A stretch of 64,000 nucleotides of DNA, taken from contig JAWAFI010000003.1 of NCBI GenBank assembly GCA_038890615.1, positions 6,477 to 70,476 on the forward strand, read 5' to 3'. Numbering within the stretch: the first letter of the stretch is position 1; each line of letters opens with the position of its first letter. Positions 11,591-50,145 of this stretch are shown one piece after another. Below the pieces are notes generated by a model. That model had not been told where the DNA came from. It saw only the letters and a program-made list of their open reading frames with translations, and made no database searches. The position numbers and the translations under genes were made by a program. Origin of the DNA: Candidatus Anstonellales archaeon (lineage in GTDB: Archaea > Micrarchaeota > Micrarchaeia > Anstonellales > J096).

Positions 11591-13151
<1,561 letters not shown>

Positions 13152-20258: not shown

Positions 20259-23200
20259 CTATTCCTCAATCTCTTCATCTTCTTTTATGTTGCTTGCCCT
20301 CTTTGAGATTCCCATAAGTATTGGCAGGGCCTCATTTATTCCATTCACTATTTCTTCAGCACCTTTTTCATTCCATGGAGAAGTGTAAGTTTTTATGATA
20401 GGGCTTAACCCCTCCTTTATCTTTGCCTCAGAAGAATCCAAGTTATAGGTTGGGGAAACAAGCATTGCCACAAGCCCTGCATCTTGGTACTGCGGACCCT
20501 TTACATTCCTTGTCTTTTCCCTGTAAACCTTGGCATATTTCCTTAGTTCCTTCAACTGCTTTATTATTCCTTTTATATCCCCAGCATTATCCCCAAAGTC
20601 AGTGAAAAATACGAAAAGTATTGAAGGTGCAACAGCCAACTCTTTTTTCCAGAGATGAGCAACAACCTCATCTTGTATCTCCTCCATCCTTTTCTGGAAG
20701 TTTCTGAGCATACCTGGTATGTCAGTCCCTCCCCCTGTTGATTCAAAATCATAGAAAACACGCACCATCGAGGGGTCTGAGGGGCTTTTTTCCACAGTGA
20801 ATTCAGTTGCGTCTATGTCAACAAGGGTGTCATCAGAAGCCACGGAAATTAGCCTTACCTTTACAAGTGTGTCTTTCTTTCCTTTGGAAAGTATTTTCTG
20901 CGCAGCGATAAGTGCAAGCGCATGTTTCTTGGCAACTTCTTCTCTTTCAGGATCGCTCATGCTTCCGCTTGTGTCAATAACAAGGTAAATGTTGATCGGC
21001 CTTATTCTCAGCTCGCTGCCTTTTTCGCTTGTCTGTATAAGCTTCCTCTCAAAGCTTCGCTCTAATCCCTTTATGTCTCCTGAATAAACGCTCTCAACAA
21101 ACTTCCTTATGTTGACATTTCCTTTCTTCCCAACTTCAGGCACAACCGTGAATTCCCCTTCTTTTATTCTGCTCAATAAATTAATATACTTGTCAACAAT
21201 CTCTTTCTCAATTAATTGGTCGTAAGGCATCTTCTGCTTCTCCTTGATTTTGAAATTCTGCTCCTTTGCATCTTCCCTCTCCTTTTCCTCCGTATCACTT
21301 CTACCTCTTTTATCAGTCTTTTTAGGATGCACTGGCGCCTTCTCATGCGCCTCATCACTTTCTTTTTCCATCTTGTTGACCTCCTTGCCGCGCTCGCCCT
21401 TTCCATCTTTAGGGCTTTTTTTGTTGGCAGGAGATCCTCCTCTTCCTTTTCTCCTTACTCCATCCCCACCCTCAAATTCTTCTCCTCCCTCGTCTTCTTC
21501 TTCCCCCTCTGAATAGAGCTCAATTATCTCTACTTTTACATCCCTGAACACAACAGCAAGCGCAAGGTATTCCATAGAGGCTTCTAAAGCCCTATTCATG
21601 GATTTTTCAATGCCTCCTGGTCCTTTTATCGGAACCCCTTTGCTGTCAACTGGAACTAAGTATCTCATCAACCTATCAAGTTCCTCTACGAATATAGCAG
21701 TTTCTGGGTTATTGGAATGGAAGAACATAGGATAAAGCGGTCCTAGTTTTGTTTTGAGAAGGGTTAGAGCCATTAATTCAGTCAATGAATCCTCTTCAGC
21801 AGGGCTAATAATTTTCCCTCCTTCTTCCTTACTGCCTTTTACCAACTCATCCCCTTTTAATTTCTGTTTGCTTGCATCTTCTATCTGCTTCCTAAGGTCC
21901 TCTGCCCTTTCCTTATGTGCAGCCCAAAGCAAGGTATAAACTCCCATCCTATAAGCTGCCCTGAAATTTTCTATAGAGTCATTAGGCATTTCGCCAAGTG
22001 CTTGAATTACCTCATCTGGCCCATCTGATTGTGTAAATGCAGCATCTATTTTGTAGTCCTCAAAAACATTTAAGAGATATTCAAATCCAATTTGAGGAAA
22101 CAGAAAAACAAATGATTTTATATCTTCATCCCATTTTTTTATGTCGTTTCCGTACATTTCCTTTCCTGTCTTGAGCATAACATCCATTAAAGTTTTTGCT
22201 ATATCTTCCATAATCACCTCTTTTTTATTCCTTTTACTTAGATTGAACTTTGAATCAACCTCTTCGGTAGCTTTTCGAATAACCAAATTTATGAAGCTTT
22301 CAAGCTTTCTTAGCCTTTCAACTCTTTCTGGGGTGAACATGTCATTGAACATTTTCTGCGTGGCAAAAAGGTCAACCCTTGGCTCTGCTGAAATGTCAAA
22401 AATAAAGCTGCCTTCCTCAATGTGCCCAACCTCATGCCTCATAAATTTAAAGAAGAGCAGAGAATTCATTTCTTCTGTATTGAAAAATGTTAAAAATGGT
22501 TTTATGAAAATGTTCCTGTTGTTTGTGGCAGCAGGGGCTTTCAAGTCAATAGTGTAACTTAGCATATGCTGATACTTTGGAAAGAGATAAGAAATATCAG
22601 TGCCTAGAAAAAGAGATAAACCATGCTTTTGGGCAGGCAGCCTGCTTGTTCCTGTGTTTATTCCCAAGTCGATTACTCTGCACCCTTTTGCATCCAAAAA
22701 ATCCCTTATGTCATTGTCCGGAACAGTATACAGAAAAGAATTAACTACCTCTGGAAAAACAGATAATCCTTTGTTGCTCTTCATTTCATTGAATAAATAA
22801 TTCAAAAATTCGTCCTTTGAAGCTCCTATTTCTCCCTTCTTTACCCTTTCAACCATATCTCGGTTCACCATAGGAAGGGAATCAAGCAGACCTTCAAGCC
22901 CCCCAAGCTTTTCTACCACCCATTCTAGGTCCCTTTTTGGTATGCCCTCTTCAAGAGAAATAATAGAATGCAGAGCCTCACTAAGGTTTCTTTTTACCTC
23001 TGACGGCTTTTCATTTATGCTAAAAAATTTCATCACTAAAAACTCAAGGTAAGGTACTAGCCCATACTTTGTATCTGTAATAGATGGGAAAAAAACCAAC
23101 GCAGGATTGTTAAATTCCTTTACTATCTGTGCTTCCACTGCTTCTGGTGGGTATTTTATATTGTTGCTTTTAATAATGTCTGCGGCAAGTATAGCTCCTG

Positions 23201-23864
23201 CAATTGCCCTCGAAAAGCTGCCTTTATGATAATTTAGAATCAAATACGACTCTTTTTTCATATGATTTTTTATTTGCTTGCATATGCTCTCTATGAAACC
23301 ATCATACTTCCCCCTTTTTATTTCGTTTACTGTGCCCTCAAGAATTTTAGGGTTAATCTCCAAAAGGAATTGAGCAACCGAATCCTTTATCAATTTTTCT
23401 TGTCCCAACATATAATAATCTGAAAAGAACGAAACCGTACAATCAAAGGCCTTCTGCACACACACTTCCAGCTCATGTATTGCCTCGTCTTTCTTCCCTT
23501 CAAACCTTTTGTCATTATATACTGTCAATCCTACTTTAAGGAGCATAAAAGAATCTTCTAAGAGGCTTTCAATAACCCTTTCAAGGGTAATTTTCATTGC
23601 AAACTTATTATCCGTATACTTAGATTCCTTTACAAGCTCCTGCACTAATTGGGTAATCTTTTGTCTAAGGAAATCCTTTGCTTCTGAGTTATTTCCACCA
23701 AACTTCAAAAGCAATTGCCTAAATCCTTCAACTGTAATGTAGCTGTCCAGCTCACTCTTCAATTTCGCTAATAAAGAGTGCTTCTCTTCATCAATCAACC
23801 CTTCTCCTTTGAAAAGCGATCTTCTCTTTTGATTTTGTTCATTTTCTATAATTTTTACACTCAT
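20259..23864 (-). CDS. Large VWA (MIDAS) protein with HEXXH motif and charged low-complexity linker (CobT/NorD/CbbO-like architecture)
   Basis: RHEVGH (HEVGH at 22422-22436), LLNVFEDYKID, EGEEEDEGGEEFEGG linker, YLVIDTSGSM (DxSxS at 20961-20975), GGGTD, FFTD. Confidence 0.85.
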   Translation of the reverse strand: MSVKIIENEQNQKRRSLFKGEGLIDEEKHSLLAKLKSELDSYITVEGFRQLLLKFGGNNSEAKDFLRQKITQLVQELVKESKYTDNKFAMKITLERVIESLLEDSFMLLKVGLTVYNDKRFEGKKDEAIHELEVCVQKAFDCTVSFFSDYYMLGQEKLIKDSVAQFLLEINPKILEGTVNEIKRGKYDGFIESICKQIKNHMKKESYLILNYHKGSFSRAIAGAILAADIIKSNNIKYPPEAVEAQIVKEFNNPALVFFPSITDTKYGLVPYLEFLVMKFFSINEKPSEVKRNLSEALHSIISLEEGIPKRDLEWVVEKLGGLEGLLDSLPMVNRDMVERVKKGEIGASKDEFLNYLFNEMKSNKGLSVFPEVVNSFLYTVPDNDIRDFLDAKGCRVIDLGINTGTSRLPAQKHGLSLFLGTDISYLFPKYQHMLSYTIDLKAPAATNNRNIFIKPFLTFFNTEEMNSLLFFKFMRHEVGHIEEGSFIFDISAEPRVDLFATQKMFNDMFTPERVERLRKLESFINLVIRKATEEVDSKFNLSKRNKKEVIMEDIAKTLMDVMLKTGKEMYGNDIKKWDEDIKSFVFLFPQIGFEYLLNVFEDYKIDAAFTQSDGPDEVIQALGEMPNDSIENFRAAYRMGVYTLLWAAHKERAEDLRKQIEDASKQKLKGDELVKGSKEEGGKIISPAEEDSLTELMALTLLKTKLGPLYPMFFHSNNPETAIFVEELDRLMRYLVPVDSKGVPIKGPGGIEKSMNRALEASMEYLALAVVFRDVKVEIIELYSEGEEEDEGGEEFEGGDGVRRKGRGGSPANKKSPKDGKGERGKEVNKMEKESDEAHEKAPVHPKKTDKRGRSDTEEKEREDAKEQNFKIKEKQKMPYDQLIEKEIVDKYINLLSRIKEGEFTVVPEVGKKGNVNIRKFVESVYSGDIKGLERSFERKLIQTSEKGSELRIRPINIYLVIDTSGSMSDPEREEVAKKHALALIAAQKILSKGKKDTLVKVRLISVASDDTLVDIDATEFTVEKSPSDPSMVRVFYDFESTGGGTDIPGMLRNFQKRMEEIQDEVVAHLWKKELAVAPSILFVFFTDFGDNAGDIKGIIKQLKELRKYAKVYREKTRNVKGPQYQDAGLVAMLVSPTYNLDSSEAKIKEGLSPIIKTYTSPWNEKGAEEIVNGINEALPILMGISKRASNIKEDEEIEE

Positions 23865-24241
23865 TTTACATCATCCCCAAATATTGGAGAAAGACCTCTT
23901 TCCGTTATTCCGTATTTGGGCGGATTTATTATGCTTGAGAAGACTGGCTCCATAGTTGACCAAGCCTTCTCTGGGTCTTTTTCTGCTTCTTCTATTATAT
24001 TGTCCATTAAGACAAATATAATGAAATTCCTGTAAACCTCTTCAGCAGCCAGCTCATTTATACCCTTACCTTTAGTGGATTTTTGGACAAATGAGCAAAG
24101 CTTTTTTACAAGAGCCTTGTATGCAGTTTCGTGCTTTCTTTTATTCTCCTTGGCAAGGGAAACAAACCTCTTCTGAGCTATTTGCTCAAGCTCTGCAGGC
24201 ATTTCAAGAAGCATGTTCTCAATATTTTCGTGGGTTATCAT
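23861..24241 (-). CDS. Hypothetical protein in the AAA/VWA operon
   Basis: 126-aa ORF; 4-nt gap upstream and ATGA overlap with the VWA gene. Confidence 0.75.
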   Translation of the reverse strand: MITHENIENMLLEMPAELEQIAQKRFVSLAKENKRKHETAYKALVKKLCSFVQKSTKGKGINELAAEEVYRNFIIFVLMDNIIEEAEKDPEKAWSTMEPVFSSIINPPKYGITERGLSPIFGDDVK

Positions 24242-24245
24242 AACG

Positions 24246-27089
24246 TCACCTTTTTGCCTTTGTTGATTGAAGGCTTTTATCGATATATGAGGAAATTATT
24301 TCAGCAAGAAGTTGCTTCTCCTCTTCATTCATCTTTTTAAGTGCTTTTTTCCTTAACTCCTTCTTTTCCTCAGGGTCAATGATCTGACCCTTTAATTCTA
24401 TTTCAGTGTCAATCATATCAGTTATTGAACTTATAGAACTTCTAGTTGCCTTCACAACATCATCAAAATCATTGTTTATTACTTGCAAGCGACCTTTAGG
24501 GTCATTTTTATTTATTAGCATTTTAAGCACAAGAGTAGCCAAATCTTCATCCTGAGTAATGCTCAAAACTACCTCATAGATATAGGCCATGTTCCTTTGG
24601 TCTGCATCAATGTTTATTGTAGTAGCGGCAACCCTTGATAGATCATCTATGAAAATTAATGGTATCACAGACCTGCTAAGGAAATTGTCTAGGATAATAG
24701 AAGAAATATTCATTGTACCCATTATCCTAACATTTGATATATCCAGGATCTCGCCGTCTATATCAACTGAATTTTGGGTAAGCACTGTGTTGAGCTCCTG
24801 GCTAGATTGTACCGAATCTATTTCATTTACGAGTATTATAAAAAGCTTTTCTGGATTTCTTGATGCCTCTCTCAATGTAGAAACGAGCTTGCTTTCTTGC
24901 ATTTTTGCCCTTTTTCCATCTACTGACTCAGCTTCAACATTTGTTGACTTCAAAGTGACTTCATCGCTGTTAAGATTTGAAAACTTGATTTCCTTATAAC
25001 TAAGGCCGAGCTCGTTGTTTAACACTTTAAGAAGATGCGGAACAGCCTCTGCCATTGTTGTTTTACCCTCTTGTGTACTTCCTATATAAAGGAAAAACCT
25101 TTGCCCGCCAATTATTCCGGCAAGTGTTGACAGCAAATAGTAGTAATAAGGTTCTGAGTAAACCAGTGTATCTCCCTCTTGCTTAAGTAAAATAGTATGC
25201 CCTAAACCTTCAACACCCAACATACTCTTCAATTCTCCTGCACCTTTTCTTAATTTACTCCTGAGCTCTTCAGAATCAGGAGTTTCGCTCTGCCTTGTAT
25301 AACTGCCAACATTTAAATGAGTCATAAATCTCATCATGCCAAACAACATTGTAGAGAAAGCCCTTTCGTTACCCAAGAATGGAAATTCCTCCTTCGTCAC
25401 ATTTATTGTTGATTCTTTTAATATTCTCTGCGCCCTTATATTGACCTTGATAACCTCAGGAAGCTTTGCTGAAATATCCTTTTCTTTTATATAATTTAAC
25501 ATCTGATTTAGGAATATGTAGGATGCATATATCCTAAGCATCCCTGCTATTGTTCTTAAACTAGGAAGCATTCTGCTTGAGTAACGCTCAGGATCTGACT
25601 CAAATTCCTTGAATAAGTTTTCATAGTTTTTTATTATTGCCATTGCGAACTCCTTTAATTTTTGCGACTGCTTTTCAAGCATCTTTTTATTTGCTTCTTT
25701 AGGGCTTACTAGCTGGGCTTCAAGCAACTTGATAAGCTTTTCTACATAGCCAGAAATACCATCCTTTCCTAGGAGGAATTCTTCAAGTTTTTCTGGGGTT
25801 AGATAAGTGAACTTTATTGGGTGTACCCTTTCCTCTGTTGATGGATGAAGACCAACAGGGTTTCTTTCATCTGAAGACCTGACATTCCCAGTGCCAAAAA
25901 GCATCAGCATAGATGGTGCAGGGATTAAAAGCCTTACAATCCCTGGTTCTTTTTTTTCATACTTTTCTAAAGCATTCTGGATTTCTAGAACTGCATTTTT
26001 CAGATAAGCTTCAGTATTTCTAATGTCTTCTGAAGAAGCGAGCCCAAACACCTTTCCAATAAGGGTTCTGTCCTTAAGCAAATTGTTTATACTCGCCATT
26101 ATTGACTTAAGGTTTAGGTATGTTTCTTCATTAAGCTTTGAAGGCTCAAAAGAGAAAGAAACAACGTTTTTGTTCAAGAAGAGGTCAAGGAATGTATGGA
26201 GCTCTTTTGGCCTTTTGTCAGCGCTCTGAACATTCCTTGGTATTTCGCTCAGTTCATCAAAAACAAATATGCTTATCTCTCCTTTGAATGCCTTCTCAAG
26301 GGTTTTCAAAAATGGTATTTTATACTGCTCTTTTATAATTTCGCCGTCGCCAATTTTTACTGGTTTTATCAAATATGAGCTAGTTCCTAATGGTTCAGTT
26401 ACTTCGCTTTGCGCAGGCACAACGCATACCTCTATATGAACCCTGTCTTTTTCAGAAGATGGGAATTTCAAATATTCTGGCATTCTTATTAGGTTTCCAA
26501 GAAATCTGAAAACCTCTGCTTTAAGAGCCTTCTTTTCTTCCTCTAGCTCAGTGGCTTGCAAAGGCCTTTCCTTCATATCTGCCTCAATTTCAGAATAATA
26601 AGACACTACTCTTTCGAGCATTTTTGCAACCACACGAGAATCTGAGAACCTTTCTAAGCTTTTCCTAAGGTTCTTTGACCTCATGAACCTATCAAGCATT
26701 TCTTTAAGTTCTGGAACATTTTCTAATGCTTTAAATGCATTTATGCCTTTTTGCACTTCGTAGATATGCGCCAAGCCTTCTAATATTTCCGGCATGGCTG
26801 TAAGCAAGGTATGGGTTTTTCCTGAACCTGGGGGGCCTTCAAGGTAGATCATGCAGGGTTTCCTTTCATTGGAAAGCATCAAACCAATAATCTCATTAGT
26901 CATAGAAATAGAAAAATGTGGGTTTATCCCCCATACCGTAACATAAAGCTCATTAATTTTCAAGAGAGCGTGGCTGAATGCCTTAGATATATCTTCAGCT
27001 GATTGCTTATCAAGAAGCTCCTGCTTTCCAAAATATTTATTTTGCACCACCTTACTAATGGGGCCTCCGTCATCAAATTTGTTTGCCAT
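24246..27089 (-). CDS. Tandem AAA+ ATPase (two MoxR/dynein-related modules)
   Basis: Module 1: EGPPGSGKT, IFVFDE, GTGN, STEER, PSLR. Module 2: GSTQEGKT, IILVNEID, IMGTMN, FLSR. Confidence 0.85.
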   Translation of the reverse strand: MANKFDDGGPISKVVQNKYFGKQELLDKQSAEDISKAFSHALLKINELYVTVWGINPHFSISMTNEIIGLMLSNERKPCMIYLEGPPGSGKTHTLLTAMPEILEGLAHIYEVQKGINAFKALENVPELKEMLDRFMRSKNLRKSLERFSDSRVVAKMLERVVSYYSEIEADMKERPLQATELEEEKKALKAEVFRFLGNLIRMPEYLKFPSSEKDRVHIEVCVVPAQSEVTEPLGTSSYLIKPVKIGDGEIIKEQYKIPFLKTLEKAFKGEISIFVFDELSEIPRNVQSADKRPKELHTFLDLFLNKNVVSFSFEPSKLNEETYLNLKSIMASINNLLKDRTLIGKVFGLASSEDIRNTEAYLKNAVLEIQNALEKYEKKEPGIVRLLIPAPSMLMLFGTGNVRSSDERNPVGLHPSTEERVHPIKFTYLTPEKLEEFLLGKDGISGYVEKLIKLLEAQLVSPKEANKKMLEKQSQKLKEFAMAIIKNYENLFKEFESDPERYSSRMLPSLRTIAGMLRIYASYIFLNQMLNYIKEKDISAKLPEVIKVNIRAQRILKESTINVTKEEFPFLGNERAFSTMLFGMMRFMTHLNVGSYTRQSETPDSEELRSKLRKGAGELKSMLGVEGLGHTILLKQEGDTLVYSEPYYYYLLSTLAGIIGGQRFFLYIGSTQEGKTTMAEAVPHLLKVLNNELGLSYKEIKFSNLNSDEVTLKSTNVEAESVDGKRAKMQESKLVSTLREASRNPEKLFIILVNEIDSVQSSQELNTVLTQNSVDIDGEILDISNVRIMGTMNISSIILDNFLSRSVIPLIFIDDLSRVAATTINIDADQRNMAYIYEVVLSITQDEDLATLVLKMLINKNDPKGRLQVINNDFDDVVKATRSSISSITDMIDTEIELKGQIIDPEEKKELRKKALKKMNEEEKQLLAEIISSYIDKSLQSTKAKR

Positions 27090-27100
27090 TATCTAGCACC

Positions 27101-27649
27101 CTAAACAACTTCTTTGTACACTGCACCTACGCTTTCAATTCTTTCAACTTCTTTTAAAGACCCCCTTTCACTTACAATATCAACAGTCATCAAAAACTTC
27201 TGAAGGTCGTTTGCTTCCAAGTCAAGGGACAAAAGGGCTTCTATAACTTCTGCCTGGTTCATTGTAAGGACATCCTTTGTTGAAGTGCTGTTTATGTTTA
27301 TTTTTGGTATGTTCTCAGGTGCAAGCATTTCCTTCAGCTTGTTCTGATCAAGCCCGTTCATTCTCGCATAAAAGTATACTGCAAGGCCTCCGGAGTTTGC
27401 ACCCTCGCTCTTCAACTTTTTCAGCTCTTCAAATACTTTGGGGAGGAGCATAACTGCTTGCCTAGAAGGGTCTTTCGGGCTTTCGTCAACCGCTTTTTCC
27501 AAAACCGTCTTGTAATAGTAGTCCCAGAGGTGCTTCTCAGCTATAGAAGTAAGTCCGTCAAAAAAGCCGTATTCCCTGGCTTTACTCATGACTGCATCCA
27601 CTATTACCTTGGCTGTCTCCTCGCATTCTGGTTTTGCATCCCCACTCAT
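27101..27649 (-). CDS. Hypothetical protein, first gene of the AAA/VWA operon
   Basis: 182-aa ORF with upstream AGGTGA Shine-Dalgarno; 11 nt from the ATPase start. Confidence 0.75.
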   Translation of the reverse strand: MSGDAKPECEETAKVIVDAVMSKAREYGFFDGLTSIAEKHLWDYYYKTVLEKAVDESPKDPSRQAVMLLPKVFEELKKLKSEGANSGGLAVYFYARMNGLDQNKLKEMLAPENIPKININSTSTKDVLTMNQAEVIEALLSLDLEANDLQKFLMTVDIVSERGSLKEVERIESVGAVYKEVV

Positions 27650-27734
27650 TCTTTCACCTTATCTTATATATTTTTTGCCCTTTTTAATACTTTCTATTAG
27701 CAATTATTAAAAAATATAACGATTACTAATTTTT

Positions 27735-42944: not shown

Positions 42945-45140
42945 TCAGGCAGGACAGTTGAAATCAGAGTAGCATTGGCTTATTATGTAGCGGTATTTCC
43001 TAATCACTTCATAAGCGAAATCATAGCCATACATCTGCTTGTTCCTCTTGGTTGTATAATCTATAAAGTCAGTGTAAGTGCAGGAGGCGTCACTGGGGTT
43101 GGGGGTTATTGAAGCATAGCTGCTTATCCATGAGCTATCCCAATCGCCATAATACATATGAAGGGCTATGAACATTGCAATAAGGTCTCGCTCATCGCTT
43201 TCATAGTCAGTGCCCCTGAATTGGAGAAGCTTGTCTGCGTTTTCATCTACAAACTTGTATGCAGAGCTTAGGTTTTTAGAAAGTTCTCCGCCAAATGCGC
43301 ACAAATTATCATAAGGGTCAAATGGGTTGAAGTTAGGATTGCATCTCTTTGCATTGTAAGGAAGCTCAAGCCCATGAGGGTCGCTGTTGTAATAAGTGAA
43401 TGGAGCTATCTGCAGCCCTGTCAAGCCAAAGTTGCAGTAGCGCTGGCCTGATTGGGGCTGAGGCGAAATGGAGCATACGGAGGAAGGGTCTGATATGTAA
43501 GGAGGGTAAGGAGGAGGAGCAGGGCCAGGGTTGCAGAATGGGTCTGAAGAAGTAGCATAATAATAAGCGCACTTGTCAATAGTTCCTGCTCCGCCGCTCA
43601 TTACCCACATTACTGCTCGGGTTATTGCAGGAGGTATTGAATAAAGGTCCGAGTAGCCATCGCTCACATCTTTATAGGTGTTGCATAAGTCATTATCGCT
43701 AGGGTCTGATGCCCCGGGCGCGCTGCCGGGCGAATAAGGTGTTATGCACCTATCGTATGGATCAGGGAGATCTTCATAGTAAAGGCAACCAGTGCAGGTA
43801 TACTCAAGGGGATCTGATTTCAGTGGGTCAAGAGGGTTGTCAATGCTAATTGTTGCAAAAGGAATCTGGTAGTTAGAGCTTACTAGGACGCATTGAGGCA
43901 GGGGTCCTACTGGAAAATGGATTATTGGAGCATATGGGCCTGAATATGCAATTTGGCAGAAGTAAAACCAGTGCCTAAACTCCTGGAGCTGGTCAGCATT
44001 CTGCTTTGAGAAATCGAACATTCCGCAGTTGGCGCAATCAATCGGGCCTCCCCCTGCATTGCTCACCAGCGAATACATAGAGCTCCCTATTATCCCTGAT
44101 GAGGTTAGCTGCTGAAGCTGGAGGTAATAGATTTTTATGAATTGGGTGTTGTAATCCTCAGTCCACCTGCACTGCTTTCCGTTGCCCATAACAAATATGC
44201 CCTTGTCCAAAAGTATATAAGCCCACACAACCGGCTTGTCAAATGCATATGTAAGGTTCCTTGACCAAACGAACAGCTTTGTTATTGCAACATTTGGGTC
44301 ACAGGTTGATTCCTTTTTCATCATCTCCTTGTTGTCAAACCCAACGCCTATGAAATCCACTGCGTCCCTTGTGGCCTTGTCAGAAAGGACTGAATGGGCA
44401 AATTCAGTCTCGCCATATTTAACGCCGAACCCGATAAGGCAGTTCGGGCATTCCTGCTTCATTGCCTGAAGCTGCGCCCTTATAATTGAAGTGTCATCCC
44501 TAGAAGCGTCTTTTTTAGCAGAGAAATCACTAACTATAAGAACAGGCCCCAAATCCTTGAACTGCGCAGCAAATTTGCCCCCTTCGTTTGGATCAGGGGA
44601 TGTCCCTGTTGAATACAACAAGTAAAGAGGCATCACATTTTTTTCCAAGTAGCACTTAGGAATGCTCTTTGAAACGATAGGGTAGGAAAACTGTTGCCTT
44701 GTAACCCACTGGGTTGCCAATGAAAGGGAGTTGTTGCAGAACTTATTAGCATACCTGAAAGTGCCCATTGATGGGCCTTGCCCAACTAGTGCCCTCTGCA
44801 CAAATGTATGGGTTGAAGTGGTTGTTATAGAAATGTTATGAATTTCATCCCGAGAGCAATTTGTGTCAAAGCTGCACTCGCCTTCATAAAGCGAAGGCAC
44901 TGAAGAAAGCCAAGGGGTCTTCTGCTTGCAGACCATGCAGGAGCAGTCGTTTGTAGTGTCAACAAGAGCAGCCTGCTGCTGAGCCATTTTTGCAAGGTCA
45001 GTTTCTACTAAGGGCTTGTTGAGAGTGGCGCTGCTTAGCGCATTCATGTCATTTTTCAACTCTGCGCATCCAGAAAGGAAAATCAATAGGGCAATCAGGA
45101 AAGCAGGCCTAAGCTGATGAATGGAATGTTGAATGCCCAT
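42945..45140 (-). CDS. Secreted Cys-rich lipoprotein: putative degenerate glycoside-hydrolase-like barrel plus SLT/lysozyme-like C-terminal domain
   Basis: Lipobox FLSG|C, many Cys pairs, YSIPPAITRAVMWVMS, GLTGLQI, FDPYDNL, IALHMYYG. Confidence 0.6.
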   Translation of the reverse strand: MGIQHSIHQLRPAFLIALLIFLSGCAELKNDMNALSSATLNKPLVETDLAKMAQQQAALVDTTNDCSCMVCKQKTPWLSSVPSLYEGECSFDTNCSRDEIHNISITTTSTHTFVQRALVGQGPSMGTFRYANKFCNNSLSLATQWVTRQQFSYPIVSKSIPKCYLEKNVMPLYLLYSTGTSPDPNEGGKFAAQFKDLGPVLIVSDFSAKKDASRDDTSIIRAQLQAMKQECPNCLIGFGVKYGETEFAHSVLSDKATRDAVDFIGVGFDNKEMMKKESTCDPNVAITKLFVWSRNLTYAFDKPVVWAYILLDKGIFVMGNGKQCRWTEDYNTQFIKIYYLQLQQLTSSGIIGSSMYSLVSNAGGGPIDCANCGMFDFSKQNADQLQEFRHWFYFCQIAYSGPYAPIIHFPVGPLPQCVLVSSNYQIPFATISIDNPLDPLKSDPLEYTCTGCLYYEDLPDPYDRCITPYSPGSAPGASDPSDNDLCNTYKDVSDGYSDLYSIPPAITRAVMWVMSGGAGTIDKCAYYYATSSDPFCNPGPAPPPYPPYISDPSSVCSISPQPQSGQRYCNFGLTGLQIAPFTYYNSDPHGLELPYNAKRCNPNFNPFDPYDNLCAFGGELSKNLSSAYKFVDENADKLLQFRGTDYESDERDLIAMFIALHMYYGDWDSSWISSYASITPNPSDASCTYTDFIDYTTKRNKQMYGYDFAYEVIRKYRYIISQCYSDFNCPA

Positions 45141-48100
45141 GTAGGCACCTCCCTTGCACTAGCCTTATTCCGCACCTTGGGCAGAATGCGTGCCGAACTT
45201 CATCTTTCAATGATTCCCTATACTCATCCTTGGCTGACTCCCAAAATGCCTTTCCAGACCTAATCCCAGCATAGATTCCTGCAACAGAAGCCCCTGCAGG
45301 CAGGGCTGCAAATAGCATAGGCGCAAAGCCAAGGCCAATGGAATGCTTCCAGCTTTCCTTCTTCCTCTCTTCCTTGCTCAGGTTCCAAAGCGCTCCTCCA
45401 GTAATTATCCTGTTCATGTATCCTTCAGTTACTGAGTAGTACGAAAGCTCATACCTGTTCTTGATTAGGAGTTCAGGGGTTGGTATCTCCCTTCTATAGA
45501 TTGGGGCATTTGCCTCGTGCATAAGCTCCCTGCTCATTGGCAAAAGCACCTTCTGCCCTTCTCTACTCATCTCTTGCGGGGAGGAAGCGCCATAAAGCCG
45601 CAGAGCCCATAAGTGCATCTGGGGGTTTAATCTATACTGCCCCAATGAGTCAAAATAGCTGTGGCCTGGGTTTGCCATTGCCTGCCATATGTTATAAACT
45701 GCAGGGTTGTAAAATGGAGTAACAAACTGATGGGGCCTTGGCGCACCATATATGACTTCCTCGCCGCCATAACCCCACTTCTTGAACCTGCTGCCTCCTT
45801 CCCCTGAGCCGCTTGAAGGTTCTTTTGCCTCGCCTGCAAACCAATAAGCTACGCGATTTGAGAGGTTCCAGATATCCATGCTTGGGCCTGTCATCCAAGT
45901 TGAAGGGGTGAAGAGCGTTTCAATCAATGTCCTAAACCTCCCAAGATAGCGCATTCCAGTGTATGGGAACGGCTGCATAGTATCTGGCTCTATTACCCTA
46001 CCCTGTTCATCAACCAAATAGCCAAGGCTCTTTGGGGAAGGATAGCCGCCTCCTATGTAGCTCATTAGCCTTGAAGCCATTATGAATGGCTTTGCAACAA
46101 ACTGTGCAAACTTGCTTATCCTCCCCAGCATTGGGCCGCTGTACCTCCACTCAATATCATCTTGGAAGGTTTTCCAGTGCATTTCTGATGGATACGGAAG
46201 CGCCGGCCCTACCTGGAAGTATCCGTGTGTTATCCTTTCTTCGCCTTCCATTGAAGGAACATGAAGCCTGGGGTCCCTGGTAATTGCATAATCCCAGCCA
46301 CCTTCAAATTTCATGTATCTGTCCAAGATAGCACTGTATATGCCAGCAAGTTTCTTCTCCTTCAAGTAATCTGCATTCCTATGCATCTCCTCAAACATCT
46401 TAGCAGAGGCCTTCCTTCCCTCATAAAGGAGCAGGGAGCTGCCTACTAGAAGATCAGTAATTTGCTCAGCCCTGGGCGCAGAAATGTAGAGAGGCCTAGC
46501 CAGCACTTCATCAAGCAGCCCAAAACCTATCTGCTTGAGCTTTCCCTTTATCCCTTCCCAGCCTCCCATTTCCGCCTGATCCTGAGCCATTTTCTTTACA
46601 GTTACTATCTTGTAGTCATCTGGCCCTAGGACATCAAGAAGGCCAATATGGTGGCCACTATGCTGAAGCTTGAAGGAAAGAAGGGCTACATCGTATGCAG
46701 AAAGCTTTCCGCTTTGAAGCAGCAGCCTGATTGATTCCTTGAACTCTTCCTTTTGGATAGTCATAAGCTTGGCAGCATTGAAAAAGGCTGATTTGTAGTT
46801 CCCAAAAATAGATGGGTCTGCAGCAGCAAGCTTTTTGGCCAACTCTTCCATCTGAGAAGTTGAAAACATCTTGTAGCTTGGGTCAAGAACTTTGAAGTTG
46901 CCTTTTTCGTCCTTAAACATAAGCCTGGCTCCTGTAATGCCGTCAAAAATAGATACGGACATGCCATTCTCGTATGGGACAAAAGAGTTTCCTCTTGTCA
47001 TTATCCAAGGAACTGATTGGTCCATTTTCAAGGGGTTTATCCTTGTGTTAAGAAGGAAGTTGTGGAAGTCATTAATGTTTTTAGCTACATACTCCCTTAC
47101 AGAAGCATCATCAAGATTTGTCTGCCCTTTTTCCTTTGCATAATACCTGGCAAGAGCATTGAAAAACTTCAAATCTGCCTTTTCAAAGTCAGTGCGCCAG
47201 TTTGCGCCGAAGCTGGTTATGTTGCCCCTTGCGAAAACAGAAAGCATGTTCTCAAGGAAAAGCTCCCTTGTCATTGCAAGCCGTGCATCAGGAGTGTCAG
47301 GACCAGGCTTGTGGGGAGAGTCATATGCCCTTGAAACTGTCTCTATTGCAGCCACCTTGAGCCTGTCTCCGCCAATCTTCCAATGCCCTCTTAAGTCAAA
47401 GGCCCAAAGCTGGTTGTTAGCAGCCTCATACTGTATGCCCCTGAAATTGGATTTAAGCACCTCAGAAATGTTTTTGTCCATGCCAATTCTCCCTATCCCT
47501 GAAACAATGGACTTGGCTTTTGCCCCAACCTTTTCGTGCACAGCTCCGCCAATTTGATCAAGGGATGTACCTGTTGCCTCAAATGGCTTTGAGAATATGT
47601 TTGTTAGCTGAAGGGCACCTTTCTTAATCATCTCGTCTATGTTCCACTGCGGGAAAAGCGCCTGAAGCGCCAAAGCGTAATTTTCGATTGGGTTCGAGCC
47701 AACCCTCCTAATAGAGTTCATTAAATCAATTATAAAATACTGGATAGAGTTGTTTATATGCCTGCTACCAAGCCCGAAAAGCTCATTGAGCGCCTTAAGC
47801 GTTGTCGTGGCAATTGCTGCAAATTCAGCTTTGTTGCTGTATATCTTGAACTCTTGCTCACTAGCCATTGAAATATGGCCAAGCTGGGCTGCATATTCTT
47901 TTAGGAAGAAAAACTGGTAATTTGATTTAGTTAGCTCCTTTTCCATCATAAAGTGGTAGAAATCATTATAACCTGTAGAAGCAAAAGGAATTGAATCTTT
48001 TCGGTAGTAGGAGCTTCTGCTTATAAAATTATAGAGGTCCAATGCCTTTATGGATTCAGGTCTATTATCTGCACGGATTCTGTTCAATTCCGTGAAGAAA

Positions 48101-50145
48101 GTGAACACCTCTTTGTCTACATAGACTCCGTTTTGCCTTATTATTCTAAGCATGAGATGAGCCCTTAGCTTTTCCTCCAATGTTAACATGTCAACGCTGT
48201 CAATCTTTTCATCCTTGTACTTCTGGTTTGCATTAAGGTATGCCTCCCTGAAAGCCTCTGCAACCTGCCTCAATATGCGCTGGGTAGTTTCAATATCATC
48301 TAAGAGCCCATGGCGCTTAAGGTGTGCATAAGCTGCAATGAAATAGGCAGGGTCTAAGTATATGTTAAGTTCCCTAAGCTTTGCAACAAGCGCATTAATT
48401 TGATCTCTGTCAGGCTTATTTGGGTCAATAGCTTTAATGAGTTTCAGAAGTTGATCGTAGTGCCTCACTAAGAGGAAAGTAGCGCCTATGGTTCCAGAGC
48501 TCAATCCTTTTGCTCCAAGAAGGGTTTCCATGTCAACAACAAGGTTTCCGTCTTTGTCTTTTGTAATAAGGTTGCTGACTATTTTGGATAGATCCTTTGA
48601 CTCTATGCCCAGCCTTTCCTTGAATATCCTAGCCAAGGCATAAAAGTATACGCTTTGGTAGCCCTCCCTCATCCATTGGTGGTACCTTGCCTCTTGGAGC
48701 GAAACCACATCCATAAAGCGCATCATTAAAGATAGGTTTGCTCCAACTGACTCCTTTGAGCCAGGATAGCTAAGGTAGGCCATTGCCCTTGCCAAGCGCT
48801 CCCCTCTTTTGCTTTTAGACAATGCGCGAACGAAATCTTTTATTGGGTGTGGCTCTTTTTTATAAGAATCCTCTGCTATTTTAGCCCTTTCATGCTCCAC
48901 CCTTTTAACAAAATCCCTTGCCCCAAGAAGCCCCATCACGCCCAAAGTAAGCTGAGGGGCAGAAGCAAGCCTTACCTTTATCATCCTCTTGAACTCCCTT
49001 ATTAGCCTTGATCCGGACCTTATGGCGTCAAAATAAACATTTGCTGTAAGTGGTATTCTTCCTGACACTCCTTCCAGAAGATTCCTAAACCTCTTAGTGA
49101 ATTGGCCCACCCAACTCCTTGATGGTTCTTGTTCCTTCTGAGCCAGCTTCCTTGCAGGGTCTGCCATCATAACTGCATAATACATGCTAAGCAGAGGGTC
49201 AAGGGCATCCTTCTCTTCTTGGAGCAGCTTTCTGCCCAATTTTTTCTCTATCTCTTTTATCATCTCCTCCAATATCCTGTTCTTGTTCCAGCGTTTTTCA
49301 ACTGCAGTTTCAAAAACACCCTTTCTCCCTACCATGAGGTCTTTAAGCTCTTTTTCAGTAAGTTTGAGGCCAAACATGGCAAGCGCATTTACCATGTAAG
49401 CATTTATCTCGCTGCTTATTTTGCCCCAGTTCATCCTCATCTTCCTTTGATCATAACCCCTTGCGCCCCTTGAGGCAGTATACCTTTTTTTCTTCCTGAT
49501 CCTTGGGGAAGCTATGTCTAAGTACCTAAGAGGGTCTATTCCAGAGGCAAACATAGAGGCAAAAAGTATTCCTGTTAAGAAAACAGCTGCAACGCATACA
49601 GTTGGGTTGGAAGCCATAATTGCTGAAAGCGAATTAAGAATGCTTTGAGATATTGCGCCGACTACGCTTGACTCGCCTATTCTCATTGTCCTTTCAGATG
49701 AAGAACCCAAAAAATGTGGATCCCCATCATAAACTGCTTTTATTATATAAACTCCTGGCTGGAGGTTAAATGAGCATTCTGCTATCCCTCCAGATGATGT
49801 TAAAACATCCTGGCAATTCCCCAAAGGATGGAACTCTGAATCAGTGCCGTCATTATAGTAAAAGCTTATTGGCTGCCCATCAGCGTAGCAGGACTGGGTT
49901 ATAAGCTGCTGGCACTCAGGGATAGGGTTAGTGATGCAGCTTGGGTCTATTTCTGCATAAGTGACAGTGTACTGCCCTACAAGGATAGCCCTTGCATAGC
50001 CGTTCTGGACCTCAATTATTGAAAGTGAAGTCCTTACGCACCCTGTACAGGTAAAGTCAATAAGGGAACATTGCTGGGAGGATTGCCCGTGCAAAGCTGA
50101 AATAAGGAGAAGTAAAAGGAATGCTGCCCCCTTATGCTCAGACAT
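45109..50145 (-). CDS. Giant (1678-aa) membrane protein: signal peptide, Ig-like domain, TM, long helical region, C-terminal TM and zinc ribbon
   Basis: N-terminal hydrophobic stretch, PGVYIIKAVYDGD, TM VCVAAVFLTGILFASMFA, C-terminal hydrophobic segment and CPRC...CLHGH. Confidence 0.75.
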   Translation of the reverse strand: MSEHKGAAFLLLLLISALHGQSSQQCSLIDFTCTGCVRTSLSIIEVQNGYARAILVGQYTVTYAEIDPSCITNPIPECQQLITQSCYADGQPISFYYNDGTDSEFHPLGNCQDVLTSSGGIAECSFNLQPGVYIIKAVYDGDPHFLGSSSERTMRIGESSVVGAISQSILNSLSAIMASNPTVCVAAVFLTGILFASMFASGIDPLRYLDIASPRIRKKKRYTASRGARGYDQRKMRMNWGKISSEINAYMVNALAMFGLKLTEKELKDLMVGRKGVFETAVEKRWNKNRILEEMIKEIEKKLGRKLLQEEKDALDPLLSMYYAVMMADPARKLAQKEQEPSRSWVGQFTKRFRNLLEGVSGRIPLTANVYFDAIRSGSRLIREFKRMIKVRLASAPQLTLGVMGLLGARDFVKRVEHERAKIAEDSYKKEPHPIKDFVRALSKSKRGERLARAMAYLSYPGSKESVGANLSLMMRFMDVVSLQEARYHQWMREGYQSVYFYALARIFKERLGIESKDLSKIVSNLITKDKDGNLVVDMETLLGAKGLSSGTIGATFLLVRHYDQLLKLIKAIDPNKPDRDQINALVAKLRELNIYLDPAYFIAAYAHLKRHGLLDDIETTQRILRQVAEAFREAYLNANQKYKDEKIDSVDMLTLEEKLRAHLMLRIIRQNGVYVDKEVFTFFTELNRIRADNRPESIKALDLYNFISRSSYYRKDSIPFASTGYNDFYHFMMEKELTKSNYQFFFLKEYAAQLGHISMASEQEFKIYSNKAEFAAIATTTLKALNELFGLGSRHINNSIQYFIIDLMNSIRRVGSNPIENYALALQALFPQWNIDEMIKKGALQLTNIFSKPFEATGTSLDQIGGAVHEKVGAKAKSIVSGIGRIGMDKNISEVLKSNFRGIQYEAANNQLWAFDLRGHWKIGGDRLKVAAIETVSRAYDSPHKPGPDTPDARLAMTRELFLENMLSVFARGNITSFGANWRTDFEKADLKFFNALARYYAKEKGQTNLDDASVREYVAKNINDFHNFLLNTRINPLKMDQSVPWIMTRGNSFVPYENGMSVSIFDGITGARLMFKDEKGNFKVLDPSYKMFSTSQMEELAKKLAAADPSIFGNYKSAFFNAAKLMTIQKEEFKESIRLLLQSGKLSAYDVALLSFKLQHSGHHIGLLDVLGPDDYKIVTVKKMAQDQAEMGGWEGIKGKLKQIGFGLLDEVLARPLYISAPRAEQITDLLVGSSLLLYEGRKASAKMFEEMHRNADYLKEKKLAGIYSAILDRYMKFEGGWDYAITRDPRLHVPSMEGEERITHGYFQVGPALPYPSEMHWKTFQDDIEWRYSGPMLGRISKFAQFVAKPFIMASRLMSYIGGGYPSPKSLGYLVDEQGRVIEPDTMQPFPYTGMRYLGRFRTLIETLFTPSTWMTGPSMDIWNLSNRVAYWFAGEAKEPSSGSGEGGSRFKKWGYGGEEVIYGAPRPHQFVTPFYNPAVYNIWQAMANPGHSYFDSLGQYRLNPQMHLWALRLYGASSPQEMSREGQKVLLPMSRELMHEANAPIYRREIPTPELLIKNRYELSYYSVTEGYMNRIITGGALWNLSKEERKKESWKHSIGLGFAPMLFAALPAGASVAGIYAGIRSGKAFWESAKDEYRESLKDEVRHAFCPRCGIRLVQGRCLHGHSTFHSSA

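Follow-up and report, generated by a model that had tools for sequence, protein, structure and literature searches.

To our knowledge, pairs of an AAA+ ATPase and a VWA-domain partner are widespread and few of them are understood (NorQD, CbbQO, CobST and Rea1), the prokaryotic ones studied so far all being built on a single-module ATPase; we also know of almost no characterised cell biology in Micrarchaeota. The subject of this work is a cassette of four genes in a 64-kb stretch of DNA, hereafter the window, taken from contig JAWAFI010000003.1 of a Candidatus Anstonellales archaeon whose genome (846 kb, 94% complete) belongs to Micrarchaeota (DPANN). The cassette encodes a tandem AAA+ ATPase, a giant partner protein with a C-terminal MIDAS and two small proteins. 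Our reading, to which we give about two chances in three, is that the four genes form a conserved cytoplasmic remodelling machine of a narrow Micrarchaeota clade, which pairs an AAA+ motor with a MIDAS adaptor. Judged by analogy, the likeliest candidate is a machine in the style of NorQD, CobST and midasin whose motor fuses two modules, and we infer its function from that likeness. In NorQD, the pore receives a finger of the VWA domain, the post-sensor-1 loops serve as the docking site of the C-terminus and the linker becomes stretched (PMC13036017, in excerpt), and in CobST, the VWA domain is brought to the pore by ATP (bioRxiv 10.64898/2026.10.09.757910, in excerpt). According to Zhang and Aravind (2012, PMC3495828, in excerpt), no prokaryotic family is more closely related to the dynein and midasin modules than MoxR, and the chain of six modules dates from an early phase of eukaryotic evolution.

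All four genes lie on the minus strand. As called from open reading frames (ORFs), gene 1 (27101..27649) encodes P0004 of 182 amino acids, gene 2 (24246..27089) the 947-residue tandem AAA+ ATPase P0003, gene 3 (23861..24241) the 126-residue helical orphan P0002, and gene 4 (20259..23864) the 1201-residue giant partner P0001. They are separated by gaps of 11 nt and 4 nt and then share a 4-nt overlap, where the stop codon of P0002 overlaps the start codon of the giant; the four tightly coupled minus-strand genes described by the first-pass annotation, a reading of the bare sequence, are thus reproduced with their spacing. A hydrophobic-segment check found no transmembrane or signal segment in any of the four proteins.

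The same arrangement recurs in other genomes, all of the Micrarchaeota type. The ATPase gene stands directly upstream of the giant gene in all nine loci with enough upstream DNA (the window, L009-L015 and L055), and the full four-gene order is seen in six (the window, L009, L010, L011, L013 and L055), which answers the question of co-occurrence that the first-pass annotation had set as a check; three loci begin at a contig end, and gene order was not judged there. A gene of 102-127 codons separates the ATPase from the giant in eight of the nine loci, L012 being without it, and one of 178-229 codons precedes the ATPase in six of the seven loci where this position is visible, L012 carrying a gene for 419 amino acids there. 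With the ATPase as query, a match was obtained in 7/40 related genomes, distributed as 6/18 in its own family, 1/2 in one sister family and 0/20 in ten further families. When the ATPase profile was run on 401 genomes of the phylum, 33 passed E <= 0.001, of which five are full-length (its own genome, G005, G009, G010 and G014) and the remaining 28 are 15-25-bit matches to Walker A. Among 1.84 billion representative proteins, 42 reached E <= 0.001 and 16 of these E <= 1e-30, the remainder being generic AAA+ proteins (McrB-type AAA_5, TRIP13-like and multi-AAA giants). Scanning species genomes with the giant profile left 10 confirmed stretches out of 112 candidates, eight of them real and two, from Veillonella, matching the linker and the start of the VWA domain alone; in metagenome contigs, 3 of 340 candidates were confirmed. 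The cassette has been seen in a narrow Micrarchaeota clade only. One record, L016 (equal to L014, G014:C82), is titled 'Methanobacteriota archaeon', and its genome is placed in the family of the window genome, so that this label is probably outdated or wrong.

No family in Pfam, PADLOC, PHROG or NCBIfam covers the cassette, and nothing significant was returned by NCBIfam or PHROGs for any of its four proteins. At the level of sequence, the matches to known families (AAA_5 and VWA_2) are below threshold; a full-length match to a characterised MoxR/VWA pair had been named in the first-pass annotation as one of the findings that would undo its proposal. No published description of the cassette was found in the literature searched, a search that left comparative-genomics supplementary tables outside.

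The ATPase consists of two AAA+ modules, as the first-pass annotation had proposed. Module 1 covers residues ~57-540 (25470..26921, minus strand), as delimited by conservation and by the secondary structure of the model, and carries Walker A GPPGSGKT (G85..K91-T92), Walker B D278-E279, sensor-1 N402 and R421. Module 2 with its lid covers residues ~630-947 (24249..25202, minus strand) and carries Walker A GSTQEGKT (G670..K676), Walker B N755-E756, sensor-1 N794 and D801-N-F...R806. The family alignment retains K91/K676, E279/E756, N402/N794 and R421/R806 in 14-15 of its 15 members, so that the core elements of an AAA+ protein, namely Walker A, Walker B, sensor-1 and the arginine finger, are present in both modules, and the second module is also recovered in the AlphaFold model. 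Pfam AAA matches residues 668-803 over its cut-off (E 1.3e-6), with weak P-loop matches near residue 80; there is no AAA_3 or bpMoxR row in Pfam. The nearest outsiders among the 1.84 billion representatives are AAA_5, McrB-type and TRIP13-type proteins at no better than E 1e-4, and sequence searches of the PDB with profiles A1 and A2 returned nothing beyond generic hits to Walker A (best E 9e-4), with no match to the giant. From the MoxR family the ATPase departs on both counts, by its sub-threshold sequence match and by its two modules per chain. Between themselves, the modules align by hhalign in the Walker A region alone (E 7e-4); because the alignment is confined to this region, the modules do not come from a recent duplication, and an internal duplication of this kind is rejected. 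In a Micrarchaeota metagenome-assembled genome (L015:2-1802), the ATPase is split into overlapping frames of 369 and 287 amino acids, which reflects either a frameshift or an assembly error.

An AlphaFold model of the ATPase, built on the family alignment, contains both modules with a mean predicted local distance difference test score (pLDDT) of 77.6 and a predicted template modelling score (pTM) of 0.78. Module 1 is modelled with long helical inserts at residues ~120-202 and 321-378, and strand pairs appear at the helix-2 and pre-sensor-1 positions of both modules (236-257 and 309-390 in module 1; 718-729 and 774-783 in module 2). In this model, both modules carry the helix-2 and pre-sensor-1 beta-hairpin inserts of the clade comprising MoxR, dynein, midasin, McrB and the chelatases. 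The best structural matches of the single modules are CbbQ2, NorQ and McrB. For the whole protein, all of the best 50 matches listed by Foldseek against the PDB are dynein motors (E 5e-8 to 1e-6), and superposition of both modules together gives a root-mean-square deviation of 4.2-6.0 A for dynein against 13.6-15.3 A for NVL and ClpA, whose double rings are stacked. The predicted packing of the two modules is thus lateral, as between adjacent modules in the ring of dynein or midasin, and not stacked. With such packing, three chains would naturally close a single six-module ring.

The geometry also bears on descent. One could imagine the cassette as a surviving two-module stage between a single-module MoxR protein with a separate vWA partner and the six-module chains of midasin and dynein, representing an independent archaeal branch in which a pseudo-sixfold ring, made of three fused pairs, receives a Rea1-type MIDAS domain and serves to remodel the expanded ankyrin and HEAT proteins of a symbiotic archaeon. 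If this were true, the cassette would be the closest prokaryotic working model of midasin. We consider it very improbable. Because the similarity of each module to dynein or midasin is no better than that to MoxR proteins, a descent shared with midasin beyond the common AAA+ clade is not established; on the predicted structure, the high Z scores against dynein and midasin reflect the two-module arrangement and are no evidence of specific descent.

The giant partner ends in a VWA/MIDAS domain (residues ~881-1186; 20307..21224, minus strand). Although the 12 relatives of the giant show just 18-28% identity, the MIDAS residues D964-x-S966-x-S968, T1047 and D1089 are invariant among the 12 giants, so that the MIDAS is indeed intact, as had been read from the sequence. 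The predicted structure of the domain most resembles the MIDAS domain of Rea1/MDN1 and NorD, with Z scores that exceed those for generic VWA domains by 2.5-4.4 units, which makes it a Rea1-type MIDAS with a complete VWA/MIDAS metal site. Behind it, the tail motif R-A-S-N-I (20286..20300, minus strand) is conserved in 12/12 giants with the family pattern [KRA][ATS][ST]N[IV], in which N1192 is invariant. Before the VWA/MIDAS domain lies a disordered, Gly-rich linker (residues ~777-881; 21222..21536, minus strand), as judged from a pLDDT of 21-29 and from composition. The first-pass annotation had called this linker charged, of low complexity and acidic; the first two descriptions stand, and the third gives way to mixed charge, with D+E of 0.27 and K+R of 0.25 in the window copy and 0.16-0.31 and 0.15-0.27 across relatives, in which its length varies from 46 to 158 residues. 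The model of the whole giant is weak (pLDDT 55.7, pTM 0.47), its usable parts being the N-terminal helical region, the HExxH region described below (pLDDT 74-91) and the VWA domain (pLDDT 55-78). Word-based homologue searches with residues 420-800 and profile A2 returned the query itself as the sole match.

The best-modelled part of the giant is a zincin-like region (residues ~440-620; 22005..22547, minus strand). T447 sits in a short beta-hairpin of this region, H477-E478-x-x-H481 in an active-site-like helix, and N599, D603 and D607 in a long helix further downstream; the predicted secondary structure is compatible with a zincin layout. Both the HExxH motif and the downstream helix had been noticed in the first reading of the DNA, and H477-E478-x-x-H481 and N599/D603/D607 turn out to be invariant in 12/12 giants; T447, P456 and N467 are further invariant residues. 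We describe the region as zincin-like and as possibly catalytic. When compared with DUF2201_N by hhalign, it aligned over 37 columns, from the hairpin to HExxH, with an E value of 0.0076 and a probability of 5%, a control region giving E 0.51. The DUF2201_N model itself is found in 1/101 genomes of the order and 4/401 of the phylum, and in no genome with the cassette. In viruses, cobT is frequently annotated as a peptidase (PMC8651126, in excerpt).

The two small proteins, called orphans in the first reading, match no family in Pfam, NCBIfam, PADLOC or PHROG. P0002 has weak but real blastp matches to its counterparts in L009 (E 5e-7), L015 (E 5e-6) and L055 (E 1.4e-5). P0004 is soluble and of no known family; it has no blastp match to its positional counterparts in other loci, the ESM Atlas gave nothing usable for it, and two of its rows are non-significant (BrxB in PADLOC, E 0.031; EAD11, E 0.067).

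From these parts, a mechanism can be proposed for the remodelling machine. The tandem ATPase would form a ring, in which three copies supply six modules, and the VWA domain of the giant together with its conserved tail would dock on this ring, by analogy with NorQD, CobST and Rea1. ATP hydrolysis would then displace the VWA domain with respect to the N-terminal body, to which the flexible linker ties it, and a client held by the MIDAS site, by the N-terminal body or by both would be pulled apart, released or processed. The HExxH region may cut the client or the giant itself, or may act as a metal-dependent binding module, and the two small proteins could be adaptors or regulators.

Several points weigh against this reading. 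First, the assignment to known families is poor at the level of sequence. Pfam AAA_5 reaches the ATPase at E 0.29 and 11.6 bits, below its cut-off of 22, so that of the MoxR/dynein-type ATPase announced by the first-pass annotation the dynein/midasin-like geometry survives and the membership in the MoxR family by sequence does not; VWA_2 reaches the giant at 21.6 bits, again below threshold, and Foldseek finds no PDB match to the giant at E <= 1e-3, the best rows being NorD chains. Second, the Walker B Asp of module 2 is replaced by Asn in 6/15 family members, the window copy included. Third, no Pfam peptidase family matches the HExxH region, either in the whole proteins or in the region alone at E <= 10 (0/12), and by eye the third His of DUF2201_N is replaced by Ser or Thr in the giants. 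As for the metalloprotease that had been thought possible, the HExxH motif is under selection (12/12), and no peptidase family is assigned, with Pfam at 0/12 and the weak hhalign match to DUF2201_N. Fourth, the equivalence of the small gene upstream of the ATPase between loci rests on position and size, because blastp gives no match. Fifth, ring stoichiometry, VWA docking and force transmission would all be carried over by analogy. Finally, the window locus has no ankyrin or HEAT neighbour, and the host genome contains 73 Ank_2 matches over the cut-off, corresponding to ~33 ORFs, so that the adjacency of ankyrin genes to the cassette elsewhere, which is considered next, may partly be due to chance.

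The immediate neighbours of the cassette include ankyrin genes in L010, L012, L015, L022 and L055, and in L010 the ankyrin gene overlaps the stop codon of the giant by 4 nt; in L011, HEAT-repeat genes follow the giant. In total, ankyrin or HEAT genes flank the cassette in 6/12 loci. Given the abundance of ankyrin genes and the close relatedness of several of these loci, we take the association as no more than suggestive. As proteins often encoded beside the cassette, the ankyrin and HEAT repeat proteins would nevertheless be the best candidates for its clients or adaptors, and their recurrence hints at a link to host-interaction proteins. The ankyrin ORFs are partly clustered in the host genome (G000), for example at C1:103-104 kb, C1:206-208 kb, C2:70-91 kb and C4:30-51 kb. 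Such an expansion is unusual for a prokaryote of 846 kb and may be linked to host interaction.

The remaining neighbourhood is variable. None of the genes beside the cassette in the window was found again beside it elsewhere, the neighbours at other loci being tRNA synthetases, thermosome, ribosomal proteins and the like. One possibility is that the cassette encodes a chaperone that assembles or activates a single defined enzyme whose gene lies elsewhere, in the way that NorQD serves NO reductase, CbbQO RuBisCO and CobST CobN. All characterised relatives of the architecture act in this manner (PMC13036017; bioRxiv 10.64898/2026.10.09.757910, both in excerpt), the predicted shape of the giant resembles CobT-like proteins (weak leads of 0.91 in the ESM Atlas and, on one giant, Pfam CobT at E 0.046), and the host genome does encode a RuBisCO large subunit (G000:C1:508051-508857), on a contig separate from that of the cassette. 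However, no client enzyme lies near the cassette among its neighbours in the window, as the first-pass annotation had remarked, no candidate client gene is conserved beside it at other loci, and neither CobN nor Mg-chelatase H was found in the host genome. RuBisCO does not track the cassette either: it occurs in 30/41 related genomes against 8/41 for the cassette, 23 of the 33 genomes without the cassette have it, and it was not found in the cassette genome G020, which is 90% complete. On these phyletic grounds, the absence of CobN and the independent distribution of RuBisCO, the roles of chelatase and of RuBisCO activase are rejected; a defined client of the NorQD/CbbQO/CobST kind was found neither in CobN nor in RuBisCO, no search having been made for cNOR. 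In addition, the same genome has a separate, canonical AAA_5 and VWA pair. With these facts, a dedicated chaperone is quite improbable. The canonical pair lies at G000:C1:175283-178736 (L066, L080), where AAA_5 is matched at E 1.4e-25 in a frame of 360 amino acids and, ~2.5 kb from this gene, Pfam VWA in a frame of 954.

The evolution of the cassette is relevant to another possibility, that it is an NTP-dependent conflict or defence system resembling the MoxR-vWA ternary systems, in which an invader would be detected by the giant and the ATPase would activate an effector, either the HExxH peptidase or a repeat protein encoded nearby. The cassette diverges faster than housekeeping genes do and appears to be vertically inherited with losses: identity to the window copies is 25-31% for the ATPase and 19-29% for the giant, against 42-45% for GluRS and 36-44% for GlmS. 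This rate, the patchy distribution (7/40 relatives) and a genomic context that differs in every genus would all suit a defence system, as would the existence of MoxR-vWA conflict systems with peptidases (PMC7159879, in excerpt) and the non-significant match of P0004 to the effector-associated domain EAD11 (E 0.067). Trees built by maximum likelihood, one from seven ATPases and one from the giants that match them, on the other hand, recover the same well-supported groups and follow host genera, with very long branches, which argues for long vertical residence. PADLOC has nothing for the giant or P0002 and non-significant rows for P0004 and for the ATPase, which are, in the latter case, weak rows to mad8 (E 0.0038) and to a control protein (E 0.0048). 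No VMAP, iSTAND or bpMoxR match was found in Pfam or PADLOC, there is no effector domain apart from the HExxH region, and the host genome, at 94% completeness, has no reverse transcriptase (RVT_1). Searches of viral contigs confirmed 0/119 candidates and those of phage records none, and the GC content of the cassette (0.33-0.54) tracks that of the host genome. The defence role, one of three roles named as plausible in the first-pass annotation, thus loses ground to the non-significant PADLOC rows, the lack of viral and phage matches and the trees, and we regard it as unlikely.

A viral source would also have been conceivable. The giant aligns over 700-930 columns with CobT-like VWA proteins of phages and haloarchaeal viruses in BFVD (Foldseek, E 7e-8 to 1e-4), these being its best whole-length structural matches, and tailed viruses, archaeal as well as bacterial, commonly carry a cobST pair (PMC8651126, in excerpt). 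The GC content of the four-gene block is 0.388 against 0.444 in the remaining window, so that the cassette is AT-richer in the window, as had been suspected, and lies below its flanks. On this basis the cassette could be a remnant or a domesticated module of an archaeal virus or mobile element, like p618/p892 of Acidianus two-tailed virus or the cobST of tailed viruses. This is scarcely probable at all: there is no integrase, capsid or other viral gene nearby and no PHROG match, a sequence relative turned up neither in 2.9 million viral contigs nor in 50,697 phage records, the latter searched by tblastn with the ATPase and the giant, every locus has the cassette surrounded by housekeeping genes, and the trees, again, follow host genera. 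As for composition, sliding-window GC stays at 0.36-0.39 across ~18-29 kb, so that the AT-rich patch extends past the four genes. Among seven loci, the cassette is lower in GC than its flanks in three (the window, L011 and L013), slightly higher in three and about equal in one, its GC of 0.33-0.54 following each host genome; low GC is a feature of the window and no family trait.

In the window, the cassette is separated from a divergent gene for a DUF2207 membrane protein by an 85-nt AT-rich intergenic region (27650..27734). TATA-like boxes can be read there, with a GGTGA ribosome-binding site before gene 1, and the region is the probable promoter of the cassette. Elsewhere in the window, positions 11627-13115 hold a solitary archaeal 16S rRNA gene; an Rfam scan found no 23S or 5S rRNA gene in the 64 kb, and the rRNA genes appear unlinked. 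The DPANN cell supposed in the first-pass annotation is borne out by the placement of the genome. An 88-codon ORF at 18670-18936 matches BofA (E 2.8e-9), a sigma-K processing regulator of spore-forming bacteria and a family unexpected in an archaeon. At 42945-50145, on the minus strand, two adjacent and very large ORFs of 1678 and 731 codons have no confident Pfam family; their single match is a sub-threshold Big_3_5, and they may encode surface or adhesion proteins.

Read as a remodelling machine, the cassette would be a lineage-specific machine of Micrarchaeota. Two fused and diverged modules, both apparently active as far as their motifs tell, together with a partner predicted to bear a Rea1-like MIDAS, would make a small, expressible system, in which the origin of concatenated AAA+ rings and the division of work among unequal modules could be addressed.

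When set beside described systems, the cassette resembles several of them in part. The MoxR-vWA ternary systems with VMAP or iSTAND (Kaur et al., 2020, PMC7159879, in excerpt) likewise bring together a MoxR-type ATPase, a vWA protein and small or adaptor components, and peptidase domains are frequent there. In contrast to them, neither VMAP-C nor iSTAND nor an effector-associated domain was detected in the cassette, its vWA domain occupies the C-terminus and is followed by no effector, its ATPase is tandem, and its host is a tiny-genome archaeon and not a multicellular bacterium. The proteins with DUF2201_N and DUF2201, of which five from Micrarchaeota were compared by eye with the giants, share with them, in the same order, a T-D-G-like hairpin, an HExxH helix, a helix of the form N-x-x-x-D-x-x-[IV]-[ND], a charged linker and a D-T-S-G-S VWA domain. 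The giants differ in having no third His five residues past HExxH and in adding a helical insert of ~120 residues before the Asp helix and ~430 N-terminal residues, and the Pfam model matches none of them.

The dynein motor domain has a linker, a stalk and a microtubule-binding domain, which the two-module ATPase lacks, and identity to it is 10-14%; on the predicted structure, the match to dynein reflects the type of module and its side-by-side packing, not a motor function. Midasin (Rea1/MDN1) is approached in the charged, low-complexity linker of the giant and in a MIDAS of the Rea1 structural type. It differs in having six modules instead of two and in carrying motor and MIDAS on one chain and not on separate ones; there is no significant sequence similarity, and the cassette, which comes from an archaeon, has no demonstrated tie to ribosome assembly.

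NorQ/NorD, CbbQ/CbbO and CobS/CobT offer a further comparison. The cassette departs from them in a motor of two fused, strongly diverged modules instead of one, in a partner about twice as long with an invariant HExxH region, in two additional small conserved genes, in the lack of a known client enzyme, and in having no family membership at the level of sequence. As in these systems, a helix-2-insert ATPase is encoded beside a partner composed of an N-terminal body, a long flexible linker and a C-terminal VWA/MIDAS domain. The conserved C-terminal tail of the giant, too, has its counterpart there: because the C-termini of NorD and CbbO dock on the ring (PMC13036017, in excerpt), we infer by analogy that the tail of the giant docks on its ATPase.

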